64,000 bases of DNA from Vairimorpha necatrix (GCA_036630325.1 CP142729.1:124001-188000), one strand, 5' to 3'. Positions 19,001-63,339 are shown, counted from the stretch's first letter. The notes: generated by a model not told the origin, from the letters alone. Numbers and translations are program-made.

Positions 19001-20193
19001 AATATCTACAAAAAAATTCGGGACAAAAAACTGGAAAAAGAACAAAGATGATAAAATAATAACTAAAAACTCCGAATCCGAAAACTTCCTAAAAAAGATA
19101 CATGAAATTGCTGGTCACCCAGGAATAGTCGTATTGAACAAAAATTTATCTCCCTTTTACAGCATCAACGGAATAAAAAGCAAGATAATTAATGTAACAA
19201 AAAACTGCAAAATATGCAACCTAAACAAGAAAGAAAAAGTAAAAATTCAGAAATTACAAATAACCTCCGATAAAATGTACGGAACGATTGCAATGGACAT
19301 ATTTGGACCATTTGAACTCGAAAATTTCATCCATGAAGATATTCATCACAAGGCATATTATCTGTCCATAACAGATGTCTATTCAAGAGTCTCAAGGGTA
19401 TACCTACTGTATAACATCACGGAAAATACCATAATAAAATGTATAGATAAATGGATACAAGAATTCCAACAGCCGGAAAAAAATTATCATGGACAATGGC
19501 ACACAATTCTCAGGCGAAAAACTAAGAGAAAAATACGGAAACTGTAGGGGAATTAAACTTATAAACACCCCAATATATCATCCACAAAGTAACGGAATGG
19601 CTGAAAGACAAAACAGCATAATAGCTGAGTGCTTAAGAATGAATAGATCTAATAACATCAGAGAAACAACAAATAAAATCAACATCAAGCTAAACGTCAA
19701 TTATAAAAGAACAATCGGATGCTCACCATTCGAACTGGAGAAAAAATACAGTTTTTTTGACCCATTCAAAAGGCAAACCACCAACAAAGAGCCTAAAAAT
19801 AAAACAACTCCCATTATACCAAACCTTAAAAATGATAAAAAATTACAAATAAACGAAAAAGTATTTATTAAAGAATTCAACGCCGGTAAGATGGATGAAC
19901 AGTATAAAGGACCATACACAATCAAAGAAATTGTAAACAAGGGAATCTGGGCCAGAGTGAACGAAGGAGGAAATTGGATCCACATAAAAGACATTAAAAG
20001 AAGTGGGTAGGATGTGGTATCCCACATGTCAAACATATCATTTTTGACATTTCTTGATTTGTTTACCCCGTAAACAAACAATAAAAAACTATAAAAGAAA
20101 ATTCCATACTTAGGGGTATGGAAGATATAAGAAATAAACATTGTAGGTGTAACTTATCTTTATTGGAGTTGTACTTCCGCAGGAGGTACGACA
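16100..20193 (+). mobile_element. Ty3/Gypsy LTR retrotransposon, full length, frameshifted
   Basis: 181-bp TG..CA LTRs (16100-16280, 20013-20193); TSD GTAAT/GTAAC; PPT before the 3' LTR; CHHC knuckle, LDCGA protease, YIDD RT, RNase H, HHCC-DDE integrase with GPY. Confidence 0.96.
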
Positions 20194-24838: not shown

Positions 24839-24924
24839 CTGAGTTTAGCTCAGCGGTCAGAGATTCTGAAACGAACTGGTCAAATTTTAAGAGGAAGGGT
24901 TCGATCCCCGCGCGAGCCATTTTT
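24839..24924 (+). ncRNA. tRNA-like Pol III cassette inside the Ginger-like element
   Basis: Box A TAGCTCAGCGG (24846-24856), box B GGTTCGATCCC (24898-24908), then CCA and TTTTT; acceptor stem does not pair properly. Confidence 0.55.
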
Positions 24925-27808
24925 CATAAGCACCCTTAAAAAAATGAAAAATGGCTCAAAAAGCGGGAATTGGGCCGTGTGCGGGCTGGGCGCACGTGCG
25001 CCCCGCGCGCGCGACAATTAATAAAAAACTTAGTTTAAAACATTTTTAGTCTGTTGGGAAACCGACAGAACACACATAGAATGAAAAAAAAATTATCGTT
25101 TTATACAATAAATTACCATTGAATTTTCAAAATAAGCGCAAGTGAAAATACATTAAAAATATAAAGTTTTTTCTTGAATTCCTAGAGTATCTTGTATCAT
25201 TTGTGTAAATCATGTATTCTAACAAAATGTGCCCATTGTGTCTTTTAAACTTAATTTTGACTTCTTTTAAATTTTCGAATGAATTTTATTTGGTATTAAT
25301 TAAAGATGTACTCATTTTTTATATCCCCTATAGGCATTCTACCAGGAAAATTTTTAAGTTTTATTTTCTCTGCTATAAATTCTCTATATGCTGCTTTATC
25401 TAATTTTCCAATAACTTTCTCGATTACACTATTAAAATCAAAAAATAAATTTTTTAAATGATCTGATTTTTTAAAAAATATTATAATTACTAGTCCAAAC
25501 CCCATCACTCTGACAAATATAATGTCTTCTCATTTTTATTTTTGAAATAGCAGAAAACATGTCTAAACTAAACATAAATTGCGTTTCTGCAGTTATTTAC
25601 AAAACACCTTTAAAAATGTATTTTCATTTTATATAATTTTTTGTGAAATGAAATACTTGTTATAAATTTGCTTCTTATTTTGCTTGATTAAAAAATAAAA
25701 ATTATAATGTCATCGGATCGTAATCCGCCGACACTAAATAATATCGTGCCGAGAGCGAAGAAAAAATGGGGGACGAGGTGAAGCTGTTTAATTTTCAGAA
25801 AATTTTGTCCGTAAAAGTGAATCTAAAAGAAAAAGGGCATGTATGAAGTATGGTTTAAATAACACGCTCATAATAATCATCATTTACCAAAGTAAAGAAT
25901 AAATTTTAATAGTGCCTTTTTTGTGGTTTTGTAAATCTACAAGTCCTATTTTAGCTATACAGTTCAGAAGTGTCAGTTATAAATTTAATGCATTAATTTA
26001 GACGCATATCTGTGTTACTTTTTGTCAGGCGACGACCTCCTGCTAACAATAAGAATCCCTAAATGTGAGTGTTTCTCATTTAATTTACATGTGAAGGACG
26101 ATATAAGTGGCAGGTGATTAATAAATATTGATTATAAGCATTTAGAGAATAACTTCTATTTCTGCAATTTACTCTTTTCGGAAAACGCCGTCGAGATGGT
26201 CTATAGCAAATATTTCTTATTACTTAATTTCCAGCCCTTACTTTTCATCATGAGTCTAAACCGAAACTAAAATAAATCTATTTTGAATACTTCGTCTTTT
26301 ATTTACGATCAGACCTCGTATCTTCTGATCACACTATTAATAATTTTTTTTTTATTTATTATTTTTGTAAAACTTAGTTTCGAAAAACGGTCAGAATCGT
26401 TTTTTAAAATTTAAAAACCCTTCCACGATATTTTCAAAAACATTATTCATCATAGATTTCGAATGAAAAGTGTCAAAAACTGAACTTTGAAACATAAAAA
26501 AAAAGTCATTAAATGGAGCAATTTGATTCTTTATTCAAGTTAAATTTGTTTTGAATTCTTATAGTTTAAGAAAATTACATCGCCCCTTTTCATATTTTAA
26601 TCATAATAAAAACTTAAAAAAAATTAGAGAAGAGGTCCATAAAAAAATGTAACAATTGCGTTTTCAAAACGGAGAAGGATACGCTAGTTATACAATTAAA
26701 AAAAATTATGAATTGTTGATCTATGTTGTTTAATTAATATTAGTAAAGTTTTATGAGTTAAGATGAAAAAAAGTTCTAGAGATTCTATTCGTTGAGCTAT
26801 TTAATTCAGTTTTGTTACTGTTGTGACATTCTCATGCCATTGTTTTTTTATATTTTTATTATTAAATACCCCTAAACTTGGATTTGTTCTACAGTTTTTA
26901 GATTTTTTATATTTTTTTCTAATATAGACTTATAATACAACATATAAACTATATTTCATAAAATCCCTTTCTTTTTCTCTTGCTTGTCTCTTATTTATTC
27001 AGTTGTCAAAATTCGTTAATAAAAACAGAAAATACTGTGATAGATACCTGTTTGACTATAATTGTCGTTTGCCTCTTATTAAATTTTCTGGCTTGTTTGG
27101 GCTTAAAAATTTCACAAAAAAAATAATTTAAGAATATTTTTTTCGGAAAAATGCAATGCTCAATAAACGTATCTGGAATATGGATAGAAGGAAAATAGCA
27201 TACAATTGGGTTTTATAAATTATTAAGCCTACACTGAAAGTATATATGCCTTCGATGTTCTGAGATTTTATGTAATTTACACATAACATATCAACGTCGT
27301 TTCAAACAAAGATGTGCTTTGAAATTTTCTAGCACAATTTAAAATGTATGCAAAAAAAGTAAATTGTTAAGTCTCTCCTGTTTTAAATATTTGCATAAAA
27401 TTTTTAAATCCTACCATCACTAAAAAAAAATCAAATATTGTTTAAAAAATTCTAACTTTAAATACGTAAAGTTTTAAACATTACTTTTACTAATATTAAG
27501 GCTTTTTAATTATAAAAAAAAATAATATTCTTAGTAAAACTTTTCATATTGATGTATTAGAGTTTAGATTGGTTCTCAAAATATATATATATTCAGCCTA
27601 TTTACTGTTCAAATGTGAATGTAGTATGTTTTTATGCAAATAAATATGCCATTGATATAGAAAATACTTTAAATTTTGAAAAAAATTCTTAATTTTTAAT
27701 TCGTGTTCACATAAGACTGCTACTTCAAAAAATCTTCATTTAGTGGGCCAAAAAATATTTTAATATTCATTTTGAAATAAAATTAAAAAAAGTGAATATT
27801 TTTGCCCA

Positions 27809-39293: not shown

Positions 39294-40319
39294 CACAATA
39301 TCTCTCATAAGATCCTAAATATGTCTTGAGGTGCAAATTATTTGCATTTCTTCAATTTTTTTTTACAAAATCTTGATTATCTAAATCATTTTAGCATGGC
39401 TTTAACATGCATTTTTCTATAACTAACTTAATAACAATTATTGCTCTTTTGTCAAGCCTAACGGACCTTATTAAGATTCAAGTAATGTGCCACAAACTCG
39501 ATCGCTCTTTATTATTTTACTGCTCCTATAGCTATCATGTGCTATCGTTTTTTTTGTAATTAAAACGTTACTTGATAGAATTATAATAATAGCCTTATTT
39601 TTAATTGTATTTGTTTCTAAAATCGTCAAATTTGTGCTAGATATTCTAAATGTTGCAGTTATTTAAGTATATAAATCTGTAGAAATATTTCATGCTACAT
39701 ATAATATAGTTTATTGGCTTGATATTGACCAATCGTAATTTTTTAAAAAAATATTAAAAATTTTTCATGATTGAATTTTTAGCAAAAATTTACCTTAACA
39801 TTATTCGTTTGTACAAAATTTAAATTATTGAAAATACCGGATACATTTTTAATATCTCCCATTTTATAATTATAAACGATTTTTACTTGAATATACAAAT
39901 GCAGTGATTATTCTTGGTCTTTTATTATGTACCGGTTGTTTATACAAAAAGCAAGCATTCCATGATGATTTTTAAATATTTTTTAGTCAATTTCCTAACA
40001 AATTCAATACAATTGAGTATATTGTAATTTTTCAGACAATATTTGTTGAACATATTAATAATTACTCCTTTTGTTTTTTACAATATTGTATATCTTACAA
40101 CAAATGTTCAAGATAATGTAAAAAGATGATAAAAATCTAGATGAAATTTTAATTTATCAATTGTATAAATTAATTATGAGCAATCAATTCCAAAATACTG
40201 TCTATACAATACATATAAACGAATAATACTCGTTTGTTTTATTGATTAATTATTAATTATATTATGTCCATAATTCATGCCAATTGTTGAAATGATTTTA
40301 TTAGATACACGGACGAAAT

Positions 40320-40730
40320 GCTTTTGTCTACAAATAAAGTAATAATATCATGTTAACAAGCTATATCATGGAATAATTAATGATGTTGTTCGGTTAAATT
40401 AGTTTTGTTTTTCACTACAAATAAAGTAATAATATCATGTTAACAATTTACAACATGGAATATTCAATGGTGTTGTTTGGTTAAATTAGTTTTGTTTTTC
40501 ACTACAAATATTGTGTAATAATATTATAGAAAACTTTACATGGAATATACAATTATGTTGTTTGGTTAAATTAGTTTTGTTATTTTCCTACAAATATTGT
40601 TTAATAATATTATATTAACAAGCTATAACATGGAATATCCAGTGACATTTTCCCTAAATTTTTAGTTATGTTTATGTGCTACAAAAATTAAGCAATAAAT
40701 TATTTTAACATCTATAACGACGAGAATTCA
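40320..40730. repeat. ~87-bp tandem repeat, about 4.5 diverged units
   Basis: CTACAAA anchors at 40328, 40415, 40502, 40588, 40679 with recurring CATGGAATA and GGTTAAATTAGTTTTGTT. Confidence 0.85.
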
Positions 40731-45240: not shown

Positions 45241-45360
45241 AAAAGAATATTGAAAAAACAATATATTTCTACTAAATATAAATAATAATGTATATTTATA
45301 AATCTATCATTATAATGATTATTAATAATATTAATTATTATAATATCTATATGTATTTAT

Positions 45361-47394
45361 AGCAAAAGAACAAGCTATGGTTAATATAGCAGTCAATAAG
45401 GAGCATGGAAACAAGCTGAAGACTATGTGGATAGATGTAAAGAAAGCCTACGACTCCGTAGACCATTCTTATCTATTAACATGTACTAGCAAGTTAAATC
45501 TCCCCCAATGGATAAGTAAATTCTTAGAAGCCACGGTTAAAAGGTGGCACATTGAGATAAAATCAGGATCGGAAACGATACTGAATAAGAAGATTGAAAG
45601 AGGCATATTACAAGGGGATTCCCTGTCGCCGCTTTTGTTTGTACTATGTATGGACCCGTTGAGCAGGAAACTGAATTCAACTTACCCAAAAGTAGGAATA
45701 CAGACTCACGAAAGTGTTTATGTAACAAACCATCTTCTATTTATTGATGATCTTAAGCTCCTCGCAGAGAACGATGTCGTTTTAAAACTGATGAATGAGA
45801 AAAATAAGTAGTATTTCTCAGCTGTTGGTTTGGAAATGAACATGAGTAAGTCAGCGACTAACTGTATTGATTGTAGCGAAGATGCAGTAATATTAGAAGG
45901 GCATCAAGGATACAAAAACCTTGGAATAACAGAGGATGCCTCTTGTGCTGTCAAAAGAGAGACTTTTGAAAAAGTAATAAATAAGATCCTACAGAGGGCT
46001 AGAAAACTGTGCAAGACTAAATTAAATGGTAAGAATATGATTCGAGCTATAAACGAGCATGCAATATCAGTAACAAAAATCATGTAGGATTATTAAAATT
46101 AGAACGAATAGATTTCAAAAGTCTCGATTTTGGTATCCGACAGGTACTTATCAAGTACCAGGTCCATACACAGCCGGCCTGCAAGGAAAGACTATACCTT
46201 TCTAGATCCGAAATGGGTAGAGGCTTCATAAGTATCGAAGATAGAAACGAAAATATGCTTCTGAATATTTATAAATTGTTAGATTAGTCTAGAAATAGCT
46301 CACTAAGACGGGCAGCAATACTTAAAGTAGAGGCGGAGAGCAAATCCCACTTATTTACAATTAACGAGTATCTAAGGATTAGGTATAGCTTTGTAGGAGC
46401 GATAACCCAGAAGATGCTAATAGAATCCCAAAAAGAAGCGCTTTACAACAAAATTAACATAAGGACAAACCATGGAAAGTTGTTTAAAGCTAGGGACAAT
46501 GATTTAGTAAGCATTAGGGACTCTTCTACCTGGCTGGTTAAAGGAAACAATCAGGCTAGATCCGAAGCAATTTACTGCTTCCTACAGGATAGAAATATCT
46601 TCTGTGGACAAGAGGGACAATGTCCCCATTGTGGATCTCATAGGAAGACCGTGGATCATTTAACTACCAAGTGTGATCGAATGTTGGGTTTTGATTATAT
46701 GAAAAGACACAACGAGGTAGTTAGATGCATTCATCTCTTACTATGTATTAAATATGGGTTTAAGAAGACAAAGAAAATACGTGGACACTCAGTACAAGAG
46801 ATCATAGAAAATGATCGTGCTGAAATAAGAGTAGATACGAGAATATCCACTAATATAAAGGTGACCCATAATAAGCCTGATATTCTTGTGTTTGACAAGA
46901 AGAAGAAAGAAATTTATATAGTTGAAGTAGGTATAACCAACCAGGATCGACTTATAATAGCCCGAATGAAAAACTAAGAAAATATGATCTTCTTGTAATA
47001 ATACATAAATCTTCTGCAAGAATAGTTCCTTATGTAATGACATGGACTGTAGTGATCACCAAATATCACAGAAAGTACATCAGAGGCCTGGAAATCCGAC
47101 CATACTTTGAAGCATACATCCAGTCTATTGTGCAGAAGACGACGAAGGTACGATCAGGGGATGCAGTAGAAGAAGAAGTGGCTAGAGCAGTAAGCGCACT
47201 AGCGAATATGGCGACTGTTAAAGAAGTGGTTTCGGCAAAGGGGAATGAAGCTGCTAAAGTGAAGTTGGAAAACATTAATAATTCCACAGAAACCAAAGTC
47301 TGTGAAGAGCTGAATCCCATGAGCGATACCGGGGAAAGCTGTGCTATGAATATCTAATCTTAATGATAAATTAACTCAATAAATCTTTTATTTT
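45361..47394 (+). mobile_element. 5'-truncated RLE-type (R2/R4/NeSL-like) non-LTR retrotransposon
   Basis: RT motifs DVKKAYDSV, GILQGDSLSPLLF, FIDD; CPHC..H..C knuckle, RHN, KPD, EV endonuclease; 11-bp TSD TATGTATTTAT (45350-45360, 47395-47405). Confidence 0.94.
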
Positions 47395-49505: not shown

Positions 49506-50774
49506 ATGGGACAAAATCACTCGGCTCCAAACAGTATAGACGACTCCGCAACTATAAACATAAAACGGAGAAGAAGAGTCAAAGAAAACAAAAATGCTTC
49601 TAAACCTCCTATAGTCTACCCACTAGTCAAATGTAAACTAAGAGATCTGAAACTACAAAAACAACTAGCCTATCTCTCCTTAGAAGACAACCTTCTAAAC
49701 TTGGCAGAAGTCAAACCAAGCGAATTTGGATCTCAAAAAATGCTAGTAGACCAAATTAGAGGGAATCCTCTAAGTATAGGCACTCTAGAAGAATTCGTAG
49801 ACGACAATCATGCTATTGTAAGTACAGGACTCGGGCCTGAATACTATGTAAGTATCTACTCATTCGTAGATAAAGACTTACTTGAGCCCGGGTGCACTGT
49901 ATTACTAAACTATAAAGATAATTCAGTAGTAGGTGTACTAGAAGCAGAAACAGATCCAATGGTGAGTGTAATGAAACTTGAAAAAGCGCCTACAGAAACA
50001 TACGGAGATATTGGGGGACTAGAATCCCAAATACAAGAAATCAAGGAAAGTGTAGAATTCCCACTTACTAATCCAGAAATATATCTGGAAATGGGTATAA
50101 AACCACCAAAAGGAGTCATTCTTTATGGTCTCCCTGGAACAGGAAAAACACTACTAGCGAAAGCAGTGGCAAACCAAACATCAGCAACATTCTTGAGAAT
50201 TGTAGGCTCAGAACTAATTCAAAAATATTTAGGAGATGGACCCAAATTAGTTAGGGAATTATTCAAAGTAGCTGAAATGCACGCACCTTCTATAATTTTC
50301 ATAGACGAAATAGACGCCATAGGTAGGAAAAGATACGACTCAAGCTCAGGAGCACAACGAGAAATACAACGTACTATGTTAGAATTACTAAACCAACTAG
50401 ACGGATTTGATACAAGAGATGATATAAAAGTCATAATGGCTACTAATAAAATAGAAATATTAGATCCTGCTTTAATAAGACCTGGTCGTATAGACAGGAA
50501 AATAGAATTTGGTATGCCAGATGCTGCTACTAAAAAGAAAATATTTTCTATACATACCAGTAAAATGACACTGGATGAGAATGTTAATCTTGACGAATTA
50601 GTAACAAGTAAAGAAGACTTAAATGGGGCTGATATTAAAGCAATATGTACAGAAGCAGGAATGATAGCATTAAGGGAAAGAAGGAAACATGTGTGTAAAG
50701 AAGATTTTAATAAAGCGAGAGAGAAAGTATTTTATACTAAACAGAATAGTTTACCGACGGGATTATATTCTTAA
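49506..50774 (+). CDS. RPT2: 26S proteasome AAA ATPase subunit 4 (Rpt2/PSMC1)
   Basis: MGQ start after [51 protein letters not shown]-terminus. Confidence 0.96.
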
Positions 50775-50794
50775 TAAACTTTATGTACTAAAAA

Positions 50795-51000
50795 GAAATT
50801 TAATATGTGTTTCTAAAAAATTTCATATGTGTTAAAAAAAATTTTATGTGTTTTAGAAAAAAATTTAATATGTGTTAAAAAAAAAATTTAATATGTGTTT
50901 TAGAAAAAAATTTAATATGTGTTTTTTAGTTTTTTAGAAACAAAATTTTATGTGTGTTTTTTTAAAAAATTTTATGTGTTTTTAGAAAAAAAAAAATATT
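50795..51000. repeat. Low-complexity ~23-bp tandem repeat
   Basis: About eight AAAAATTT(A/T)ATATGTGTTTT-like units. Confidence 0.8.
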
Positions 51001-51049
51001 TTAACGAATATTTTTTATATATAAAAAAAAAAGTTACTGTAAGTTTGGA

Positions 51050-51837
51050 TTTTTTTTCTTGCAAGTAAGAGGTAGGGAGAAACCTTACATAGGGACCAGA
51101 GGGATTTGAGTGTGATCCTCATCCAACTGGTACTGTGAGATTCTTACTCACTAAAACTCCCTCCATACAGTTTGCCGGTGCAGCAAGCTCCGCCGTATCC
51201 ATTGGACTTTGGCTCCAGGAGAACACTTTCCATTTATACCTCCAATCGCGTCCAGAGTGACCTCACAGCGGATATACTTAACGGGCATGGTTATCTATAA
51301 CCCGAGGAGAGACATCATCGTACTACTCAAAGGTCCCTACAATCATCTGTATTGCACACACGGCTCCTTACACGACCACATCACCAGCCCGACGTTTTTT
51401 ATTGGGCTGCGTTGACCACCAGTATTCCACTAGTTTCGGCCACCGTGCTACAGAATCTTGTAAGATGGGGTCCACGAGATCTTCTGTTGCCCTACTTCTT
51501 CTAGTCTCTTAGTTAGCTCTAGAATCCCACCCTGGAGTGCACCAGCCATGGGCTCCAACTAGGCCGTACCCATTAGATACTTTTATGTATCATTAAGTCA
51601 CCAAAGGGTGATACTGCTTTTTGGCCTTGAGGTGCGTTCTACACTAGATGCTAATCCCCTTGTGGCTGGACACACACAAGTTTCATTGAATCAACTTAAT
51701 GATTATCGTGGACATTTTCATCATTTAAGTTGTTCCAACTGCATCATGTAAAGTAGAAACAATTTTGGTGCCCCTGGGGATCGAACCCAGCCATTGCTCA
51801 ATGGAAGCATTGCATTCTACCACTGTGCTAAGGGCAC
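51050..51837 (-). mobile_element. tRNA-headed SINE-like element
   Basis: Minus-strand head GTGCCCTTAGCACAGTGG...GGTTCGATCCCCAGGGGCACCA with box A/B; ~715-bp non-coding body; A-tail. Confidence 0.85.
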
Positions 51838-52119
51838 TTTTTTTTAATTTATATAATATCGAAGAATACTTTTAAGTTATAAATTATTTTATGAAGCAAA
51901 AAAAAGAATTCTTTGATCATAATTCTTATTCATGATAATTTTAATGAATTTTATATAGTAAATTAATTCAACAATAAATGGTTATAAACAAGTAAAATAT
52001 TATTTTTAAGTCCTAATCCAAAACAGAGAATAACTATGTTAAATTGTAATATATCAAAATAATTTGGTTTTTCCTAAGATATAGAAAATAAATTTAGAAA
52101 ATAGAATTTATTGTTCTTT

Positions 52120-53861
52120 TTATTTTTTCTCTTTTTTGTTTCTTTCTGTCGGTAATTTTTCTTCTTTGGCAGTTTTTTTTGATAATAAATTTATAATATT
52201 TTCAGTATTTTTTTGCACCTCCTTTTCATTAAGTCCCATATTTTTTATTATTTCTTCCTTTACAAATTCACATTTGTATTCATATTCTTCAATTGCGCAT
52301 GTAGAACGATCTAATCTCGTAAATAATGATAATATTTTGCATATTTGATATAGAATCTCCTTTTTATACTCTCTTATTATATCAATATAGCCATTTTCTA
52401 GCTCTTTTACTATGTTTACCATATTAATGCCCCTAGAATTTTTTTTTAATTTATTTTTTGCCTTTTTATTTTCCGGAACAATTAAATTATAAATTTCTTT
52501 AAGAGATTTAAAAAGATAATCATCGCTTACATCGTTTTTATTTATATATTTTTCTGCTTCTATTAGCAAACAGATATTAATCAAGTAACATGCATTGCAA
52601 GTATTGTTATTGTCAATTAAAAAATATCTAAGATCTATTGCAATTTTTTTTTTTCATCTTCTAAAGTATTGTAAGTTCCTATTAACTTTCCTGTTTTAAA
52701 GTCTAGATCTTGTGCATCTATTATACAAATAAAAAGTAAAATATAATTGAATATTAGACTTATAGCAGAATCTTGGTTATTAAAAATTTTCATTATGAGG
52801 AATTCGATTTTATTATGGTGATGTAGTAATCTACAAACACATTGAACATATGAGCAATCATCAGTGTTTTTCAGAAGGTATATTTTGTTAATTGTTTTTT
52901 TTAGTTCTGTAAACTTTTTTTGCCCTATATAATTTTTATTGTTAGCTGATCTATTCAATGCGTAAAAATATTCTTTTTTTTCCAATTGGAATTTCACAGA
53001 GCCTGGATTTATTTCTAGCACCATTTTGTGTATATGCCCAAGTTCGATTTTATTAGATGTAATTTTGCAGTAATTTCCGCAGCTATAACTTTTCATATAT
53101 TTAGCATCTGCAACTTTATATAATCTTAATAATCTCATTAAAATTTCTTTCTTTCCTTTAAATTCATCCTCAATTGCTATGTTGACCAAGCTATTAACGT
53201 CTTTATTGTCAATTTCGTTCAAATTAAATTCAAATAGGTAACAAATATTGTTTTTTTCAATACAAAATCTAATATAGTAAATATTGGTATATCTGTTATA
53301 ATAGAAAGATATTGGGATGTCTGGTATACGCAACTTATATTTGTTATAGTTATTAAAATTTTCAATTTCCCTAAGTATTTTGTTTAGGTGACAATCTTCA
53401 TAAGAAATGTTTTTGTAAAATATTTTATCTGTATTCTTTTCACTTCTACTTTTATTATTTTCTATTATTTTTTCGATAATTTGTTTCGCAAACGAACTAT
53501 ACGTGTAATTATAAAGGCTATAAAACAATACAATGTTTTTATCGTACGATAAATTTATTATGTTTTTTATATTTTCTTCTAAAATCTTGATATTATCATT
53601 AATTGATTTTCCTTCATAGTTAAAACTAAAATTTTCCGTGTGTTGTTTTTTTTCGTCAATACTTATATCTTTTATTGTGCAGTTTATTTCTTTATTATAA
53701 TAGTGTACACGTAGAAATACTCTAGTATAATCTTTGTTTGAATCATAAACTGTATAATCACCTTTTTTAATTGCATTAAACAGGTTGTCTTTTATATTTC
53801 TGTAATTAATTTGATTAGATCTTACAAAAAAAATAGCAAAAAATATTTTGAGTAACTTCAT
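52120..53861 (-). CDS. MKLLKIF signal-peptide family protein, split by a 1-bp indel in an A11 run
   Basis: ORFs 53861-52635 and 52584-52120 join if one A is added at 52644-52654; paralog of 60966-62705. Confidence 0.85.
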
Positions 53862-54413
53862 TGGGGTAAAAAGAAGTTAGTATATTTATATGAAAAAATT
53901 TAAAGGAGAAAAATACTATGTTCATTTAACTATAGTAATGTCACAAATTCGTACAAATTTATAAATTTTTCAACTACATGTCAAATGTCTTCTTTTTAGC
54001 GATGTGTGTCAAAAAACTCAGTAAAATGTCACTGCCCCTATTTTCTGCAATTGTGAACATATTGAATCGCAATAATTATAGAAGAATAATATTTAGGCAT
54101 TTATAAATATGTCACCGACTAAAAATTAAGAACTTTTTGTGGAAATATAAATTTTTTATATAATTGCAATGTACGCAAATTTTCTCCTAAAGCCGACATT
54201 AGCCAATCATTTTAATTTAGTAAAACAACTTTTTACATTTGCAATTTTTGCTTACTTAAATTTGATTTTGACATAGCATATTTTATCTTTAAAAATTTTA
54301 TACTATTTTTGGAGACTTATTACTATAAATAATTGATGTGTTGTGCAATATAAGGCATTAATTGTGTTTTACAAATAGTTATCTAAAGCTTCCATTTTTT
54401 AAACGAACTTTTT

Positions 54414-55391
54414 GGAGCTTTGGCCCACTATGGTCAGAAAAAGGGTATTTAAGTAAATTTGTAATTTTTTTGCCCCAAAAATGAAAAGTCGAGAGGAGGA
54501 GCTCATGAACATTTTTTCAACAGCAATCGAAAACAAGACAGTAAAGTGTACAAAATGTGATGCTGATTGTAAAACGACTAAAAAAAACAAATATGTAGCT
54601 ATATGTAAATGGAAAGCTTGTAAAGTCAAGGTGTCATTATTAAAAGACACTCCATTTTATTGCGAAAAGACAAGTATATTAGATATTTTGTTAGTAATAA
54701 AACTATGGTCTTGTAAAGTTAAACAGACTGCCATATGTGAATTTCTGGGCATTAGTCAAAAATGCATAAGACATATAATAATAAAACATTATCTATTGTG
54801 GAAAATACTGTTTATAATTTAACTGGTAAAATAGGTGGACCAGGAATAATAGTAGAAATAGATGAATCCAAATTTGGTAAAGTGAAATATCACAAAGGCC
54901 ATCGTGTCGATGGTGTCTGGGTTTTTGGGATGGTTGAAAGAACCACCCAAAGGAAGATTGTAATGATTCCAGTAGACAATAGAAGAGCTGACACTTTAGA
55001 AGAAATAATTAAAAATTATGTTCACAGAGAATCAATAATACACAGTGACTGCTTTAAGTCTTACAGCAAATTAAAAGATATATTTGCAGAGCATAAAACT
55101 GTTAATCATTCCATTGAATTTGTGAACAATATCAATAGCTGTCATACTAACACTATTGAAGGAAATTGGTTTGGTATAAAAAATGAAACTTCAGTAAACA
55201 CAGAACAAGAACACTGATTTCTGGTTCACAATAAGATTTATGTTAAAAAGAAATTTTAAAGGAGATGTATTTACAAATATTATTAAATTTATTTTTTCTT
55301 CCTTTTTTCCCGTTTTGACTTTCCAAAAAAAGGGTGTTTTTTTTAAAAAAAATATTTATAGCCAAAAACGCTCATTGTGGGCCTTTTAGCC
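54414..55391 (+). mobile_element. Merlin (IS1595-like) DNA transposon, frameshifted
   Basis: GGPGIIVEIDESKFG, WVFG, HSD, TVNHS, TNTIEG; imperfect TIRs with core GGCCCACwATG; TSD GAACTTTT/GAATTTTT; empty site at about 63251. Confidence 0.93.
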
Positions 55392-55864
55392 GAATTTTTG
55401 CATAATGTTTTAAGATTTGGTGATTACGTTTTTTAAGAAGAAAAGTATTACGTAGCATCATGATTAATATAAGAAATTTTACAAATAACAACAACAAAAT
55501 TGAATTCATTTTGTAATGTTGGTGCCTACATGATAATGACAGATGTTATAAATTCCACCTGTCATATATTTTAAAAGACCTGTCAGATACCCCCTATGGC
55601 CAATAAAATTGTGTCATATTAACAAACAAAAAAATAGAGGGTGTATTGTTGGTAAAGCATCGAAAGTCACCAATGTTGTATTCTTTTTAGAATAAAACAT
55701 AATAGAAAGTATGATCAGAAGAACAGGGTGATTGGAGAAACTAAGTAAAAGAGCTGCGCTGAGAAGGCCAACAACAATGTTGACAAACTCTATATATATA
55801 TATATATATATATATGAATTTTTGTGGAAATCTAATACAATAATAGTAAAGTCCCTGTGATACA

Positions 55865-56654
55865 TTTTTTTTTTTGCAAGTAAGAGGTAGGGAGAAAACT
55901 TACATAGGGACCAGAGGGATTTGAGTGTGATCCTCATCTAACTGGTACTGTGAGATTCTATACACCTAAAACTCCCTCCATACAACTTGCCGGTGCAGCA
56001 AGCTCAGCCGTATCCTTTGGACTTTAGTCCAGGATGAAACCTTTCCATTTATACCTCCAATCGCGTCCAGAGTAACCTCACAGCGGATATACTTAACGGG
56101 CATGGTTATCTATAACCCGAGGAAAGACATCATCGTTCTGACTCAAAGGTCCCTACAATCATCTTTATTGCACACACGGCTCCTTACACGACAACATCAC
56201 CAGCCCGACGTTTTTATTGGGCTGCGTTGACCACCAGTCTCCCACTAGTTTCGGCCACCGTGTTACAGAATCATGTAGGATAGGGTCCACGAGACCTTAT
56301 ATTGCCCTACTTCCTCTAGTCTCTTAGTTAGCTCTAGAATCCCACCCTGGAGTGCACCAGCCATGGGCTCCAACTAGGCCGTACCCATTAGATACTTTTA
56401 TGTATCATTAAGTCACCAAAGAGTGATGCTGCTTTTTGGCTTTGAGGTGCGTTTCTACACTAGATGGTAATCCTCTTGTGGCTGGACACACACAAGTTTC
56501 ATTGAATCAACTTAATGACTATCGTGGACATTTTCATCATTTGAGTTGTTCCAACTGCATCATAGAAAGTAGAAACAATTTGGTGCCCCTGGGACTCGAA
56601 CCCAGCCCATTGGTCAATGGAAGCATCGCCTTCTACCACTGGGCTAAGGGGACC
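55865..56654 (-). mobile_element. tRNA-headed SINE-like element, second full copy
   Basis: Highly similar to 51050-51837; head GGTCCCCTTAGCCCAGTGG...GGTTCGAGTCCCAGGGGCACCA; A11 tail. Confidence 0.85.
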
Positions 56655-56736
56655 TTTTTAATTTATATAATATCGAAGAATACTTTTAAGTTATAGATTA
56701 TTTTATGAAGCAAAAAAAAGAATTCTTTGATCATAA

Positions 56737-59700
56737 TGTTACCGGCTGTGTTGCACACACCAATAATCAGACTAAAACTGAAAGATGAAACAAATCATAA
56801 TGATCTGAAACATGATTGTTTCAGATCCGAAACTAAAACTATTTAAGAAATCTTAAATAGAATAAAGATGCCAAATAAATATAGTTCTTCTTCTAATAAA
56901 AAGCCTTCTTCAATAACCAGCTCTCCTTCTGGTAACACTGGCGACAACTATTCGAAATCCAACGAATTGGGCCACCTACTAGAAAAATTAGGGATATCTA
57001 CTAACACAATGGTGAAATTCAACGGTACCCAAGGCGAGAATGCATGGGTCTGGATTAATCAATTTAAATACCTCGAGGGAGAATGGAATGATATAAAACT
57101 GCTCAACTACATTAAAAGATACTTAGGGGAATCAGCTCTCCTATGGTATGAGGCTGTAATTGAAGACGAGGTGGAAGGATATATGGAATTCAAACAGAAA
57201 TTTCTAACAAAATATGGGAAAGAAGAATTCCGGGAGGGAATTAATCCCATTAAAATGCTTTATAAGAGACTATACTCTGGACCTGTAAATATGAAAATTG
57301 AAAACTTTATATACGAACTAATGAAGCTTAACAAGAAAGCAGGAGTTAGCGTGTCTGAAATTACGGAGGAGTTGGCTAGATATTTCCCACCGTCACTTAA
57401 AGAAAAGGTGGAAGAGGCAACGTCATGGTACGTTGTACTAGAGATTTACGAGAGAAATCGTAAATTTATTGAGAGTTCAAGGCAGAGACCTGAACAGAGT
57501 AGGCCAAGAGAAGCGAGGACTTTGAGGTCAGATACTACAAGGACTAAAGAGAGTCCAAAAAAGCTAGTATGCTATAAGTGCGGAGGCGAGCACTTATTTA
57601 AGGACTGCAAGAAACACGAAGGGAAAAAAGTGTTATTAGTTGAAGCAGATCCTGTGTCAAGGGACACAAATTTCACTACGGTAGAAGGATCTTTCAATGG
57701 CAACGTAGTCAGAATACTTTTTGATTCAGGTGCCTCTAACTCATTTATTAATGAAAACTTAGTTAGCAGAGAAGAACTAAGAAAGGTAAAGGGAGTCACA
57801 CTCAGAACTGCAATATCTAGCACTTTAGTAAATGATTCATTGGAAGCGAAAATCAATATTAGTGGGGAGCGATTCAAAACAACATTGCTCGTTGTGCCAA
57901 ACCTGAATGAAAGCATTATACTCGGGCGCGACTTTATGATAAAGCACGGAGTCAAAATAGATCATGGAGATCAGACAATCAGGTTAAACAATAAAACTAT
58001 TAACTCCTATATCTTGTTAAGCACGAGGCGACCTAAACTTCTAACTATTGATGCGAACCCCCAAGGGAAGCAAACTTCGATTACAAAGCTCATAGACCGT
58101 TATAAGACACGAGTATCTAAGCACAAGGGAACAAGTTCAAAAGTAGAACATGAAATACAACTAACGGTCCCTAAAGTTATATGTAAACGAAATTACCCTT
58201 TGAGTCTAGACAAAAGGAAATTCATACAGGAAGAAGTCGAGAGACTATTAGACGAAGGAATAATCGAGGAAAGCACGAGCACATGGAATGCCCCTACAGT
58301 AGTGGCACCGAAAAGGGACGGCGGTATGCGATTGTGCATAGACTTCAGGGAGTTAAACGAGATCACTGTGAAAGAAGTTTGTCAACCCCCATTAATTGAA
58401 GAATGCTTAACGTACTTGAGCGGCGCGAGGATATACTCCCAGCTAGATCTGGAAAAGGGATATTACCAAATACCCATGAAAAAAGAATCAAAGAAGCTCA
58501 CTGCGTTCATGACACCATCTGGGAAGTTTCAATTTCGACGAATGCCCTTTGGTCTGACAAATGCGCCAGCAACATTCCAAAGCTTAATGTATAAAATATT
58601 TAGAAAACAACTAAATAGAACCACGGTAGTCTACTTAGATGATATCTTTGTATACTCAAAAACAAGGGCAGAGCACGAGGTTCACCTTAAAGAGGTTTTT
58701 GATATTTTAGCTGAAAATAACTTACAAATAAATTTTAAGAAAAGTAAGTTTATGACAAATACAATCGATATTCTTGGATATACTATAGTCTCGGGGTCAG
58801 TGACGCCTGATAAATCACGAATGGGGCCGCTAGAAACAGCGCTTGAGTTAAAGAATATTAAACAACTACAATCAGCTATCGGACTCTTGGGATTCTATCG
58901 TATGTTCATAAGAAACTTTAGTGAAAAGGCCCTAGATATATACCGGGTTATTAACGAGAAAGGCCCGATCACAACGAAGGTAAGAGAAGACGTAGATTCT
59001 ATTAGATTGGAACTAATAAACAGTCCATGGCTAGCACTTCCCGATATGAAACTACCATTTATTATTGAAGCAGACGCTTCGGACTCGTGTATCGGGGGAG
59101 CCCTTAAACAGGCACAAGCAGGCAAAGAAGTAACGATACGCTGTGCGAGTAGAGTTCTGAATAAGCATGAACGAAACTACACGACCCTAGAGAAAGAAAC
59201 TCTAGCTATAATATTCTCAGTTAAGAGCTTTAAAATGTACTTACACAATGAGTTTACAATTAAGAGCGACCATAAGCCCCTCATGTGGCTGTATAAAGTG
59301 AAAAATCCACAAGGAAGGATAGCTCGGTGGTTGATGTTTCTGAGCGATTTACGCTTCAAGATAGAGTACAAGGAAGGAAAATCACATATCCTACCAGATT
59401 GCCTATCTAGAATAAATGCGTTAAACATGCAGCTTATACCATATTCCGAGGAGAAGAGCATAAAAGACTTGATAAGAGAAGCACACTCTTACATAGGACA
59501 TGGAGGAATAGAAGCGACCATCCTGTTTTTAAAATCACACAGATTAGCGTCTAGTATCAAGAAGGAAGACGTAAAAAAGATCATAAACGGCTGTGTGACG
59601 TGCCTAGAACATAAGAAACCACGTAAAAAGTTCGTAGTGTTCCCAACGAGACTGGATTCGGCTTTTAAAATGATCGGAATTGACTGTATAGGCCCTCTAC

Positions 59701-60762
59701 CCAAATGTTCGTCGGGTAAAAGATTCATTATAGTAGCAACAGACTATATGACAAGATGGGTAGAGGCGAAGGCAGTGAAGCATAAATCTGCATTCGAAAT
59801 CGCAAAATTTATTATGGAAGATATCTTCTGTCGACACGGTACAGTAGAAATAATTCGAAGCGACCAGGGATTAGAATTCACTAATCAAATTGTAAAAAAG
59901 ATTACGGAGCTATTTGGTGCTCACTTCAGACACTCGAGCCCCTATCATCCACAATCAAATGGACTTGTGGAACGTACAAACCAAAGTTTAGTAGTGAAGT
60001 TATCAAAGGCGGTAACGGATTATCAGAGCCAATGGGATAGGATATTACCACTTGTACTTATGCAGTACAGGTTGTCCCCTATAGAGAAATTGCACATGTC
60101 TCCGTTTGAAATGCTCTATGGCAGGAAAGGTGTACTACCTACCGCATTAGAAGAACTGCCAAGCGACTTTGAAATGCTGTTTATAACCCCTGCGGATTAT
60201 CTGAGCGAACGTACAAGACTGACTAACCAGATAAGAGAATTCGTATGTGCGAAGAGAGATGAGGATATTAGGAAATATGATGAACAGAAGTCGAGCAAAC
60301 TTTCCGCCGACGACGTAAAAGAAGGAACATTGGTGTTTATCAGAAATAGAAATATGAGAAGCAAACTTGATAAAAAATACATCGGACCCTACATGGTCAC
60401 AAAAAACAAACTAAAAGGAGCCTATGAAGTAAGGAGTCTTGAAGATGGAATAGAACACTCTATAAACCGAAATTATTTTGTAGTATATAAGAAAGACGAC
60501 GATATATTGGAGAATATAACATCTTCCCTGGAAGTGAAGCCTTGTTCTAAGGAGGGGAGAGTGTTACCGGCTGTGTTGCACACACCAATAATCAGACTAA
60601 AACTGAAAGATGAAACAAATCATAATGATCTGAAACATGATTGTTTCAGATCCGAAACTAAAACTATTTAAGAAATCTTAAATAGAATAAATATGCCAAA
60701 TAAATATAGTTCTTCTTCTAATAAAAAGCCTTCTTCAATAACCAGCTCTCCTTCTGGTAACA
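56737..60762 (+). mobile_element. Intact young Ty3/Gypsy LTR retrotransposon
   Basis: 201-bp LTRs (56737-56937, 60562-60762) with TGTTACC..GGTAACA ends; TSD CATAA; PBS-like TGGCGAC; PPT AAGGAGGGGAGAG; empty site at about 51918. Confidence 0.97.
56868..60671 (+). CDS. Gag-Pol polyprotein
   Basis: 1267 aa: gag, CYKCGGEHLFKDC, FDSGA protease, YLDD RT, RNase H, HHCC-DDE integrase, GPY. Confidence 0.95.
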   Translation: MPNKYSSSSNKKPSSITSSPSGNTGDNYSKSNELGHLLEKLGISTNTMVKFNGTQGENAWVWINQFKYLEGEWNDIKLLNYIKRYLGESALLWYEAVIEDEVEGYMEFKQKFLTKYGKEEFREGINPIKMLYKRLYSGPVNMKIENFIYELMKLNKKAGVSVSEITEELARYFPPSLKEKVEEATSWYVVLEIYERNRKFIESSRQRPEQSRPREARTLRSDTTRTKESPKKLVCYKCGGEHLFKDCKKHEGKKVLLVEADPVSRDTNFTTVEGSFNGNVVRILFDSGASNSFINENLVSREELRKVKGVTLRTAISSTLVNDSLEAKINISGERFKTTLLVVPNLNESIILGRDFMIKHGVKIDHGDQTIRLNNKTINSYILLSTRRPKLLTIDANPQGKQTSITKLIDRYKTRVSKHKGTSSKVEHEIQLTVPKVICKRNYPLSLDKRKFIQEEVERLLDEGIIEESTSTWNAPTVVAPKRDGGMRLCIDFRELNEITVKEVCQPPLIEECLTYLSGARIYSQLDLEKGYYQIPMKKESKKLTAFMTPSGKFQFRRMPFGLTNAPATFQSLMYKIFRKQLNRTTVVYLDDIFVYSKTRAEHEVHLKEVFDILAENNLQINFKKSKFMTNTIDILGYTIVSGSVTPDKSRMGPLETALELKNIKQLQSAIGLLGFYRMFIRNFSEKALDIYRVINEKGPITTKVREDVDSIRLELINSPWLALPDMKLPFIIEADASDSCIGGALKQAQAGKEVTIRCASRVLNKHERNYTTLEKETLAIIFSVKSFKMYLHNEFTIKSDHKPLMWLYKVKNPQGRIARWLMFLSDLRFKIEYKEGKSHILPDCLSRINALNMQLIPYSEEKSIKDLIREAHSYIGHGGIEATILFLKSHRLASSIKKEDVKKIINGCVTCLEHKKPRKKFVVFPTRLDSAFKMIGIDCIGPLPKCSSGKRFIIVATDYMTRWVEAKAVKHKSAFEIAKFIMEDIFCRHGTVEIIRSDQGLEFTNQIVKKITELFGAHFRHSSPYHPQSNGLVERTNQSLVVKLSKAVTDYQSQWDRILPLVLMQYRLSPIEKLHMSPFEMLYGRKGVLPTALEELPSDFEMLFITPADYLSERTRLTNQIREFVCAKRDEDIRKYDEQKSSKLSADDVKEGTLVFIRNRNMRSKLDKKYIGPYMVTKNKLKGAYEVRSLEDGIEHSINRNYFVVYKKDDDILENITSSLEVKPCSKEGRVLPAVLHTPIIRLKLKDETNHNDLKHDCFRSETKTI

Positions 60763-60965
60763 CATAATTCTTATTCATGATAATTTAAGGAATTCTATAT
60801 AGTAAATTAATTCAACAATTAATGGTTATAAACAAGTAAAATATTACTTTTAAGTCATAATCCAAAACAGAAAATAACTATGTTAAATGGTTTTATATCA
60901 AAATCATATAGTTTTTTCCCTTGAATATAGAAAATAAATTTAGAAAATAAAATTTATTGTTCTTT

Positions 60966-62705
60966 TTATTTTTTCTCTTTTTTGTTTCTTTCTGTCAGTA
61001 ATTTTTCTTCTTTGGCAGTTTTTTTTGATAATAAATTTATAATATTTTCAGTATTTTTTTCCACCTCCTTTTCATCAAGTCCCATATTTTTTATTATTTC
61101 TTCCTTTACAAATTCACATTTGCATTCATATTTTTCAATTGCGCATGTAGGACGATCTAATCTCGTAAATAATGATAATATTTTGCATATTTGATATAGA
61201 ATCTTTTTTTTATACTCTCTTATTATATCAATATAGCCATTTTCTAGTTCTTTTACTATGTTTACCATATTAATGCCCCTAGAATTTTTTTTTGATTTAT
61301 TGTTCTTATTATTTTCCGGAACAATTAAATTATAAATTTCTTTAAGAGATTTAAAAAGATAATCGTTGCTTACATCGTTTTCATTTATATAATTTTCTGC
61401 TTCTATTAGCAAACAGATTTTAACCAAGTAACATTCTTTTGAGGTAATCATTAGTAATTTACTCAAAAGAATTTTTGTAATTTTTCTTTTTTTTTCGTCT
61501 TTGAGTTTTTCAGAAATTATTAACTTCCCTGTTTTAATGTCTAGGTCACGGAATTCTATTATATTTAAAAAAAGTAAAATCCAATTAAATATAAATCCCA
61601 TAGCTGAATCTTCGTTATTTAAAATTCTCATTATGAGAAAATCGGGTTTGTTATATTGATGCAATAATCTAAAAACAAATTCAACATAAGAATATTCATC
61701 AGTATTTTTCATCAGGTATATTTTGTAGATTGTTTTTTTAAGCTCTGTAAACAAATTTTTCCCCATCAGATTTGCATCGGTAGTTGAATTATTCAATGCG
61801 TATAAGACTTTCACTTTCTTCGAATAGGCCTTGAATTTAACGAGGTCTGTTTGAATCTCTATTAAATTATATCCTGAATAAACAAGCTCGATTTTATTAG
61901 ATGTAATATTGCATAATTTTTCTGCACTGTGCCTTTGGATATATTCAGCTTCTGCAAAATTATATAATTCAAATAATCTCATTAAAATTTCTTTCTTTCC
62001 TTTAAATTCATCCTCAATTGCTATGTTGACCAAGCTATTAACGTCTTTATTGTCAATTTCGTTCAAATTAAATTCAAATAGGTAACAAATATTGTTTTTC
62101 TCAATACAAAATCTAATATAGTAAATATTGGTATAACCGCCATAATAGAAAGATATTGGGATGTCTGGTATACGCAACTTATATTTGTTATATTTATTAA
62201 AATTTTCTATTTCATCAAGTATTTTGTTTAGGTGACAACCTAAAAAAGAAATGTTTTTGTAAAAAATTTTATCTGTATTCTTTTCACTTCTACTTTTATT
62301 ATTTTCTTTTATTTTTTCGATAATTTGTTTCGCAAACGAACTATACGTGCAATCATAAAGGCTATAAACCAATACAATGTTTTTATCGTACGATGAATTT
62401 ATTATTTTAATTATATTTTCTTCTAAAATCTTGATATTATCATTAATTGATTTTCCTTCATACTTAAAACTAAAATTTTCCGTGTGTTGTTTTTTTCCGT
62501 CAATACTTATATCTTTTAATGTGCAGTTTATTTCTTTATTATAATCGTGTACACGTAGAAATACTCTGATATAATCTTTGTTTGAATCATAAACTGTATA
62601 ATCATCTTTTTTAAACGCATTAAAAAGGTTGTCTTTTATCCTTCTATAATATATTTGATTAGATCTTACAAAAAAAATAGCAAAAAATATTTTGAGTAAC
62701 TTCAT
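60966..62705 (-). CDS. MKLLKIF signal-peptide family protein, intact 579 aa
   Basis: CCCC before ATG; signal-peptide-like MKLLKIFFAIFFVRS; lysine-rich C-terminus. Confidence 0.9.
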   Translation of the reverse strand: MKLLKIFFAIFFVRSNQIYYRRIKDNLFNAFKKDDYTVYDSNKDYIRVFLRVHDYNKEINCTLKDISIDGKKQHTENFSFKYEGKSINDNIKILEENIIKIINSSYDKNIVLVYSLYDCTYSSFAKQIIEKIKENNKSRSEKNTDKIFYKNISFLGCHLNKILDEIENFNKYNKYKLRIPDIPISFYYGGYTNIYYIRFCIEKNNICYLFEFNLNEIDNKDVNSLVNIAIEDEFKGKKEILMRLFELYNFAEAEYIQRHSAEKLCNITSNKIELVYSGYNLIEIQTDLVKFKAYSKKVKVLYALNNSTTDANLMGKNLFTELKKTIYKIYLMKNTDEYSYVEFVFRLLHQYNKPDFLIMRILNNEDSAMGFIFNWILLFLNIIEFRDLDIKTGKLIISEKLKDEKKRKITKILLSKLLMITSKECYLVKICLLIEAENYINENDVSNDYLFKSLKEIYNLIVPENNKNNKSKKNSRGINMVNIVKELENGYIDIIREYKKKILYQICKILSLFTRLDRPTCAIEKYECKCEFVKEEIIKNMGLDEKEVEKNTENIINLLSKKTAKEEKLLTERNKKEKK

Positions 62706-63339
62706 TGGGGTAAAAAGAAGTTAAGTATATTTATATGAAAAAATTTAAAAGGAGAAAATTACTATGTTCATTTAACTATAGTAATGTCACAAATTCGTAC
62801 AAATTTATAAATTTTTAACTAAATGTCAAATGTCTTCTTTTTTAGCGATGTGTGTCAAAAAACTCAGTAAAATGTCACTGCCCCTATTTTCTGCTATTGT
62901 GAACATATTGAATCGCAATAATTATAGAAGAATAATATTTAGGCATTTATAAATATGTCACCGATTAAAAATTAAGAACTTTTTGTGGAAATATAAATTT
63001 TTTATATAATTGCAATGTACGCAAATTTTCTCCTAAAGCCGACATTAGCCAATCATTTTAATTTAGTAAAACAACTTTTTACATTTGCAATTTTTGCTTA
63101 CTTAAATTTGATTTTGACATAGCATATTTTATCTTTAAAAATTTTATACTATTTATGGAGACTTATTACTATAAATAATTGATGTGTTGTGCAATATAAG
63201 GCATTAATTGTGTTTTACAAATAGTTATCTAAAGCTTCCATTTTTTAAACGAACTTTTGTATAATGTTTTAAGATTTGGTGATTACGTTTTTTAAGAAGA
63301 AAAGTATTACGTAGCATCATGATTAATATAAGAAATTTT

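Follow-up and report, generated by a model that had tools for sequence, protein, structure and literature searches.

An element of 788 bp, or about 780 nt without its A-tail, is present in three collinear copies in the 64-kb stretch of Vairimorpha necatrix DNA analyzed here (hereafter the window), all of them on the minus strand and alignable from head to tail (Table 1). The unit consists of a tRNA-like head of ~72 nt, a non-coding body of ~710 nt, and an A-run; it has fixed ends and belongs to a dispersed multi-copy family. We consider it probable that this is a tRNA-derived, A-tailed SINE family that has been moved in trans by a LINE. Three collinear copies with the same 5′ and 3′ ends and the absence of any LTR-like structure speak for a SINE, as does a head whose A and B boxes remain canonical although it no longer qualifies as a tRNA. 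On the other side, no more than two independent insertions are directly visible in the window, a conserved T4 run lies ~100 nt before the tail, and the one target-site duplication that can be made out is rich in A and blends into the A-run.

Copies of the element in the window

The original prediction had described three copies with this anatomy, and both reading of the sequence and self-BLAST confirmed their positions and their parts. The young copies 2 and 3 are closely alike, with 51049–51923 aligning to 55864–56737 at 93.75% identity over 880 columns. Copy 1 is old and decayed: 11334–12077 aligns to 51064–51845 at 67.6% identity over 785 columns, and copies 1 and 2 are 70.1% identical when gap columns are left out. 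Self-comparison places the copies at 11.3, 51, and 56 kb, and a tandem arrangement is absent.

The body had been expected to measure ~715 nt and to be richer in GC than the genome, and this proved correct, with GC contents of 46.8% in copy 2 and 46.5% in copy 3 against 28.5% in the window. The published V. necatrix genome, as excerpted, has a GC content of 28.3% and consists of about 50% repeats (PMC10759460). Copy 1 has fallen to 35.7%, and its mismatches with copy 2 are strongly directional: a G or C in the young copy faces an A or T in the old one at 122 sites, and the reverse holds at 44. The family is GC-rich at its source, and inserted copies drift toward the AT-rich composition of the genome. 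This GC-richness may reflect a foreign origin or a constraint on the source copies.

All three copies end in the A-tail that had been predicted, in the form of runs of A8, A11, and A6 in copies 2, 3, and 1, respectively, and no AATAAA is found near the 3′ end of the element in copy 2. The 8-bp target-site duplication ascribed to the old copy fared less well. Copy 1 lies outside any duplication and indeed has AAAAAATA on both flanks, but this repeat is A-rich and overlaps what would be the A-tail of the copy, which makes it ambiguous.

Table 1. Coordinates, counted from the first letter of the window, of the element copies, their parts, and neighboring features.
Feature	Position	Strand	Basis
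Copy 1, old, decayed, full-length	11328–12070	−	Sequence reading, self-BLAST, 35.7% GC
Candidate target-site duplication of copy 1, AAAAAATA	12071–12078; partner 11326–11333	−	Direct reading
Degenerate non-LTR (RLE-type) retrotransposon remnant	45344–47389	+	RVT_1, motifs, 3′-end alignment
Copy 2, full-length: head, body, A8 tail	51050–51838	−	Self-BLAST; loose ends of X1/X2 contigs at 51050 and 51837
Copy 2 A8 tail, preceded by AAG	51050–51057	−	Sequence; X1 loose ends with + strand T-runs before 51050
Copy 2 body, 47% GC, one T4 run at about 51153–51156	51058–51765	−	ORF scan, folding, composition
Copy 2 head	51766–51838	−	ARAGORN, Rfam tRNA model, B-box scan
Copy 2 A box, TAGCACAGTGG	51820–51830	−	Motif read from sequence
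B box, GGTTCGANNCC	51777–51787 (copy 2); 56592–56602 (copy 3)	−	B-box scan
Rest of block around copy 2: intergenic stretch, broken paralogue of 579-aa ORF, upstream	51839–54412	−	Self-BLAST
Broken ORF paralogue	52120–53876	−	Self-comparison
Copy 3, full-length, A11 tail, canonical A and B boxes	55865–56654	−	Self-BLAST, B-box scan
Copy 3 A11 tail	55865–55875	−	Sequence
Copy 3 A box, TAGCCCAGTGG	56636–56646	−	Motif read from sequence
Ty3/gypsy LTR retrotransposon, 85 nt upstream of copy 3 head	56738–60762	+	LTRs, domains, junctions
Matching block part around copy 3, with intact ORF	60763–63258	−	Self-BLAST, Pfam
Intact ORF P0001, 579 aa, no Pfam family	60966–62705	−	Pfam search

The tRNA-like head and the non-coding body

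The tRNA-like head with A and B boxes that had been predicted is present in degenerate form in all three copies. In copies 2 and 3 both boxes are canonical and lie at tRNA positions 8–18 and 52–62, the B boxes reading GGTTCGATCCC and GGTTCGAGTCC. The B-box motif has three matches in the window, where 0.05 would be expected from shuffles, and the third of these, at 24898, lies outside the copies. ARAGORN calls one of the three heads, that of copy 2, as a tRNA-Met(cat) with its anticodon at the atypical position 36. At gathering scores, Rfam has no match anywhere in the 64-kb window. The copy 2 head reaches 27.2 bits with the Rfam tRNA model (gathering score 29, E = 0.0033) with all 71 positions aligned, and the best Rfam match of the copy 3 head is mascRNA-menRNA, a MALAT1-type tRNA-like module, at 24.9 bits versus a cut-off of 42.5. 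For the head of copy 1, neither ARAGORN nor Rfam at relaxed thresholds reports anything tRNA-like. In the minimum free energy (MFE) fold of the element, the acceptor and T arms are all that is left of a cloverleaf. The head appears to be a tRNA-derived relic and is not a functional tRNA gene; the contrary case, that of a normal tRNA gene, is countered by Rfam scores below the gathering score in all three heads and by the misplaced anticodon in the ARAGORN call.

A second, unrelated tRNA-like stretch was noted at 24841–24925 on the + strand. It has an A-box-like TAGCTCAGCGG and a perfect B box (GGTTCGATCCC, 24898–24908), and is followed immediately by a T5 run and then by a very GC-rich stretch at 24960–25015. 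Neither ARAGORN nor Rfam at gathering score calls it, and its possible identities are a tRNA gene in decay and the head of a further SINE-like family.

The body has no conserved reading frame, in agreement with the original prediction. Its longest stop-free frames comprise 86–89 aa and are unlike between copies, and an antisense frame of 86 aa is frameshifted between copies 2 and 3. The element is non-autonomous and has no coding capacity. When the body was searched against the window by word-7 BLASTN with the three copies masked, no similarity to the rest of the window was found, LINE and LTR elements included (best E = 2.9). It contains no internal direct repeats, which led us to reject a dimeric or complex SINE; the unit is monomeric. 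Conserved motifs of the body have zero matches in two scans of JGI metagenome contigs, and a conserved 17-nt word taken from it is absent from the literature searched.

Two ideas about an internal organization of the body were rejected. With the three copies and relaxed thresholds, Rfam returns only chance-level matches and no family for the body, and the sense strand folds with an MFE of −237.9 kcal/mol versus −233.7 ± 7.6 kcal/mol for 20 shuffles (z = −0.55), the antisense strand giving z = −1.34 (20 shuffles); a structured RNA was dismissed because folding on the sense strand is no better than in shuffles and no Rfam family matches. Similarly, the windowed identity between copies 1 and 2 is no more uneven than that of shuffled columns (P = 0.087 for the maximum and 0.14 for the variance), which does not support a conserved core domain. 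Of the "mobile structured Pol III RNA" that had been proposed, mobility is upheld by the contig flanks described below, but structure is not, given the folding score and a conservation that is not uneven.

A single T4 run had been pointed out in the element. This is true of the sense strand of copy 2, but copies 3 and 1 have two and seven such runs, respectively. Although one run compares with ~12 per 788 nt in the window background, dinucleotide shuffles of the element contain a mean of 1.14 (P = 0.68, range 0.68–0.83), and base composition therefore fully explains the scarcity. T-run depletion as a signature of Pol III was rejected accordingly, since it is not significant when composition is kept. 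So few T4 runs are compatible with long transcripts from Pol III but do not count as separate evidence of such transcripts.

At about 790 nt, a Pol III transcript would be unusually long. A different origin of the family deserves attention, namely a polyadenylated non-coding RNA transcribed by Pol II whose processed copies were retroposed (as a retropseudogene or in an SVA-like manner), the A and B boxes being relics. The A-tails vary in length, a T4 run precedes the tail in both young copies, and the copy 3 head scores best with the MALAT1-type module, albeit far below the cut-off. In addition, 780 nt exceeds the length of all 175 SINEBase families, which span 75–662 nt in the excerpted SINEBase article (PMC3531059). 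However, the first nucleotide of the tRNA-like head is also the first of the copy in all three cases in the window and in five contigs of run X2 (see below). This is what a Pol III promoter inside the head would produce; transcription by Pol II would require a start site that happens to fall on this very position. Moreover, neither young copy departs from the canonical sequence in its A or B box, and the 3′ end lacks a nearby AATAAA. We judge a Pol II origin to be unlikely.

The duplicated block and the dispersal of the family

Self-comparison revealed that copies 2 and 3 have more in common than the element. The segment 51049–54412 corresponds to 55864–56737 plus 60763–63258, which defines a 3.36-kb block consisting of the element, a spacer of ~280 nt, a 579-aa ORF, and ~540 nt upstream. 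The two copies thereby have a further 2.5 kb of flank in common, with 90.3% identity between 51918–54412 and 60763–63258. Because both sit in this block, they represent one insertion that was subsequently duplicated. The predicted number of three copies is correct as a count, but the window shows only two independent insertions. No reverse transcriptase (RT) or endonuclease domain is found in the 579-aa ORF, and its only non-self homologue, with 32% identity and E = 8.6e-44, is labelled a Vairimorpha necatrix protein. The ORF paralogues have an N-terminus resembling a signal peptide.

The block around copy 3 is interrupted by a Ty3/gypsy element with 202-bp LTRs (56737–56938 and 60562–60763) that are 99.5% alike and are flanked by TTATG. 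A single ORF of 1267 aa encodes protease, RT, RNase H, and integrase domains, and the element at 56737–60763 is apparently intact and young. Its insertion near copy 3 postdates the duplication of the block.

The abundance of Ty3/gypsy elements in the window invites a reading of our element on the + strand. There the sequence after the body, TGGTGCCCC..., is complementary to the 3′ end of a tRNA, and the unit would be a solo LTR with an extended tRNA primer-binding site behind it. However, the + strand unit starts with a T-run of variable length and has no TG...CA termini, the complementarity spans the entire tRNA instead of 12–18 nt, no copy has a paired LTR or an internal region, and the body is unlike every LTR element in the window. 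A solo LTR is accordingly a highly improbable identity for the unit.

Contigs of four public sequencing runs (X1–X4) were placed on 50400–54900 at a likeness of at least 80%. The low-coverage run X2 differs from unique parts of the window by one position in 256 nt and two in 523 nt. Its summed depth is about 0–22 in flank bins and 340.7, 417.8, 437, 536, and 632.6 in the five full bins of the element; summed contig depth is not a copy number, and the excess, read only roughly, would correspond to some tens of copies up to about a hundred. At 51050, seven X2 contigs depart from the locus (median loose length 140 nt, agreement 0.52), as do five at 51837 (median 122 nt, agreement 0.52), and since these loose ends agree only to ~0.52, the flanks differ between copies. 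In X1, 36 contigs have loose ends before 51050 with a consensus that ends in a + strand T16 run, which implies A-tails longer than the A8 of copy 2. At 23 listed positions between 51109 and 51779, nearly all other contigs agree on a letter unlike that of copy 2 (for example 51109 A>G, with 265.9 of 282.8 depth in X2), which looks like one copy diverging from the family consensus. The metagenome X3 provides pieces spanning 51138–51825 with 4–11% or fewer differences per piece, and its few matches outside the element mostly continue into unlike sequence; the metagenome X4 provides one contig, at 51093–51323. The pattern in these two metagenomes fits a multi-copy repeat at trace abundance. The element is a dispersed multi-copy family, and its ends are exactly those given in the original prediction.

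Run X1 has an odd depth profile, for which reason it was left out of copy-number and expression estimates. Along the element its depth falls in the 3′-to-5′ direction from 172,200 to 5,533, which could be due to 5′-truncated copies or to 3′-biased RNA. Over the ORF region (52061–53872), X1 reaches depths of 60,000–288,000 versus 40–200 in the adjoining intergenic sequence, and X2 has 0–8 there. X1, which is labelled 'DNA?', may be more like a transcriptome than a genome, or the gene may be amplified in the sample.

These contigs bear on the question of whether the copies might be products of segmental duplication only, without any mobility, as copies 2 and 3 in their duplicated block would suggest. 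Copies confined to segmental duplications and lacking target-site duplications had been named beforehand as an outcome that would contradict a mobile element. Copy 1, however, is unduplicated, lies 40 kb away, and has no flank in common with the others; X1 and X2 contigs run from both ends of the element into diverse, unlike flanks; and the element has excess depth in X2. One target-site duplication is readable, if an ambiguous one. The contig evidence has largely refuted an origin by duplication alone, to which we assign next to no probability.

A further possibility is that the element is the 5′-truncated 3′ portion of a longer, unrecognized autonomous or ORF-bearing retroelement, for example the entire 3.36-kb block. 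Copies 2 and 3 do have 2.5 kb upstream in common, the end of the block coincides exactly with the A-tail, beyond which the downstream flanks are unrelated, and block 2 is bordered on either side by a 6-bp TCCAAA repeat. Nevertheless, the ORF part is at single-copy depth in X2 (0–8) where the element is at 340–630, contigs break at 51837, copy 1 starts at the head with unrelated sequence upstream, and the ORF has neither an RT nor an endonuclease domain. The divergence between the two blocks is also a mosaic, which is lowest upstream (0.9% over ~535 nt), intermediate in the spacer (6.1%) and the SINE body (6.5%), and highest in the ORF (11.7%). A longer parent element is thus very unlikely.

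Because of this mosaic, the block cannot be attributed to one clean event, and 5′ transduction or retro-duplication of the whole block in a single event was rejected as unsupported, in spite of the 6-bp TCCAAA. The uneven divergence of the ORF paralogues points to gene conversion in the promoter region or to a rapidly evolving coding part. The block also enters into a more far-reaching version of the SINE interpretation, in which the family would be a recently arrived, horizontally acquired SINE, for example from an insect host or another parasite, that is transcribed by Pol III over ~800 nt and may occasionally carry upstream host DNA, the block being a SINE-driven retro-duplication of a secreted-protein gene. 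The horizontal origin is suggested by 47% GC in a 28% GC genome and by old copies decaying toward AT, and the retro-duplication by the exact coincidence of the block's end with the A-tail and by the flanking TCCAAA. We regard this scenario as a rather doubtful one.

Mobilization and relation to known SINEs

For a tRNA-derived SINE moved in trans, the machinery would presumably come from a LINE. The window contains one non-LTR retrotransposon, a degenerate remnant of the RLE type. It has an RVT_1 domain at 45344–45811 (E = 1.3e-16), and in P0007 a CCHC motif and a PD...E restriction-like endonuclease motif were read, with only sub-threshold matches to zf-RVT and HSDR_N_2. Its 3′ end, set by alignment to a fragment at 2875–3682, lies near 47389 in ...AATAAATCTTTT and has no A-tail. 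BLASTN found no similarity between the element, at its 3′ end or elsewhere, and this remnant, which agrees with the earlier statement that the two 3′ ends do not match. The remnant was consequently rejected as the mobilizing partner, its 3′ end being unrelated in sequence and without an A-tail. A-rich targets and plain A-tails point to a poly(A)-dependent partner more readily than to the RLE element of the window, and a partner LINE was not found within the 64 kb.

A likely course of events would begin with source copies that are transcribed, presumably by Pol III, with the A and B boxes inside the decayed tRNA head serving as promoter. The transcript would cross the 47%-GC body, which is almost free of T-runs for compositional reasons, and extend into the templated A-run. 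A LINE-encoded reverse transcriptase acting in trans would then copy it into A/T-rich DNA by target-primed reverse transcription. Copying at A/T-rich targets is supported by copy 1, which is flanked by AAAAAATA, and by the insertion represented by copies 2 and 3, which follows an A-run. The outcome would be A-tails of variable length and short target-site duplications, and the inserted copies would subsequently decay toward the AT-rich composition of the genome.

The excerpted SINEBase article describes SINEs as '<700 bp' and operationally delimits them at '<1 kb'; it asks in addition for 100 or more copies and for a 60-nt stretch with no less than 60% identity to a tRNA, and it takes A and B boxes as an indication, not a proof (PMC3531059). 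With 788 bp and unlike flanks, our element is short, interspersed, and non-tandem in the operational sense of that excerpt, and above its descriptive '<700 bp'. [quoted passage not shown] Its ~780 nt without the tail set it apart from the tRNA SINEs covered there, although this length is within '<1 kb'.

Long fungal SINE-like elements such as Foxy, Egr1, and MgSINE carry A-rich tails and target-site duplications. Lengths comparable to that of our element have been published for several of them, with 700 bp for Egr1, 800 bp for mgsr1, and 900 bp for EGH24 in the excerpted PMC5063351, which also gives 472 bp for MgSINE. Their hosts are Erysiphe/Blumeria graminis (Egr1 and EGH24) and Magnaporthe (mgsr1 and MgSINE), with Foxy belonging to Fusarium oxysporum; Foxy and MgSINE are listed as tRNA-derived, and the fungal repeats in this excerpt are non-coding, dispersed, and present in tens to a few hundred copies (PMC5063351). 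The V. necatrix element is similarly non-coding and dispersed and comparable in length to those of 700–900 bp, a likeness at the level of the excerpted published descriptions. In contrast to them, it resides in a microsporidian and has 47% GC in a genome of 28% GC. Its characterization as an unusually long SINE therefore holds relative to the 75–662 nt of SINEBase but has to be tempered by the fungal precedents of 700–900 bp (PMC5063351, as excerpted). The length is unusual, but in light of these excerpted descriptions it is not unprecedented in fungi and their relatives.

Within the microsporidia, the excerpted N. bombycis genome paper contains a RepeatMasker tally in which 'SINE' accounts for 0.18% of the genome (PMC3614468); this concerns a related clade and bears an equal class label, but it is an automatic tally without a described element. 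SINE likewise appears solely as a RepeatMasker category in PMC13702014 and PMC11585130, the latter with zero elements. The word is absent from the main text of two microsporidian transposon surveys (PMC4202319 and PMC7313128), of the V. necatrix genome paper (PMC10759460), and of a study of genome architecture (PMC12449221). The transposon surveys searched describe LTR elements, LINEs, and DNA transposons and no SINEs, and no description of a SINE was found in the microsporidia and Nosema literature searched, where supplementary repeat libraries may hold the family under an automatic name. The original prediction that no well-described equivalent is known in microsporidia agrees with this literature, in which nothing was found beyond RepeatMasker categories.

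The surroundings of the element include several other mobile sequences. A second LTR retrotransposon occupies 16100–20193 (+), with 181-bp LTRs at 16100–16280 and 20013–20193 that are 97% identical and a pol spread over three frames. Remnants of DNA transposons comprise a Merlin/IS1595-like DDE domain at 54457–55217 (+, E = 2e-15), a DDE_3 domain of the Tc1/mariner-like kind at 15636–16058 (−, E = 1.6e-14), and a hAT dimerisation domain at 1076–1567 (+, E = 5.5e-4). Self-comparison also detected local tandem or direct repeats of 74–79% identity at 40319–40718 and 50790–50992. The repeat classes tabulated for N. bombycis in the excerpted PMC3614468 resemble the transposon remnants of the window. 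Together with the V. necatrix label on the homologue of the 579-aa ORF and the agreement between 28.5% GC here and 28.3% in that genome, this resemblance supports a microsporidian source. In a PDB comparison, the proteasome ATPase had human Rpt2 as its best match and was of no help in this respect.

The family is apparently a new, long member of the tRNA-derived SINEs and the first to be characterized in a microsporidian. It is not a new kind of system, and it leaves the understanding of how SINEs work unchanged. For V. necatrix, a tRNA-headed family would fill the SINE gap in the repeat annotation of a genome that reportedly consists of about 50% repeats, and it would imply that a LINE recognizing A-tails is, or formerly was, active there. 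As a high-copy marker, the element is visible even in metagenomes in which the parasite is rare, and it could serve to test what length a retroposon driven by Pol III can attain.
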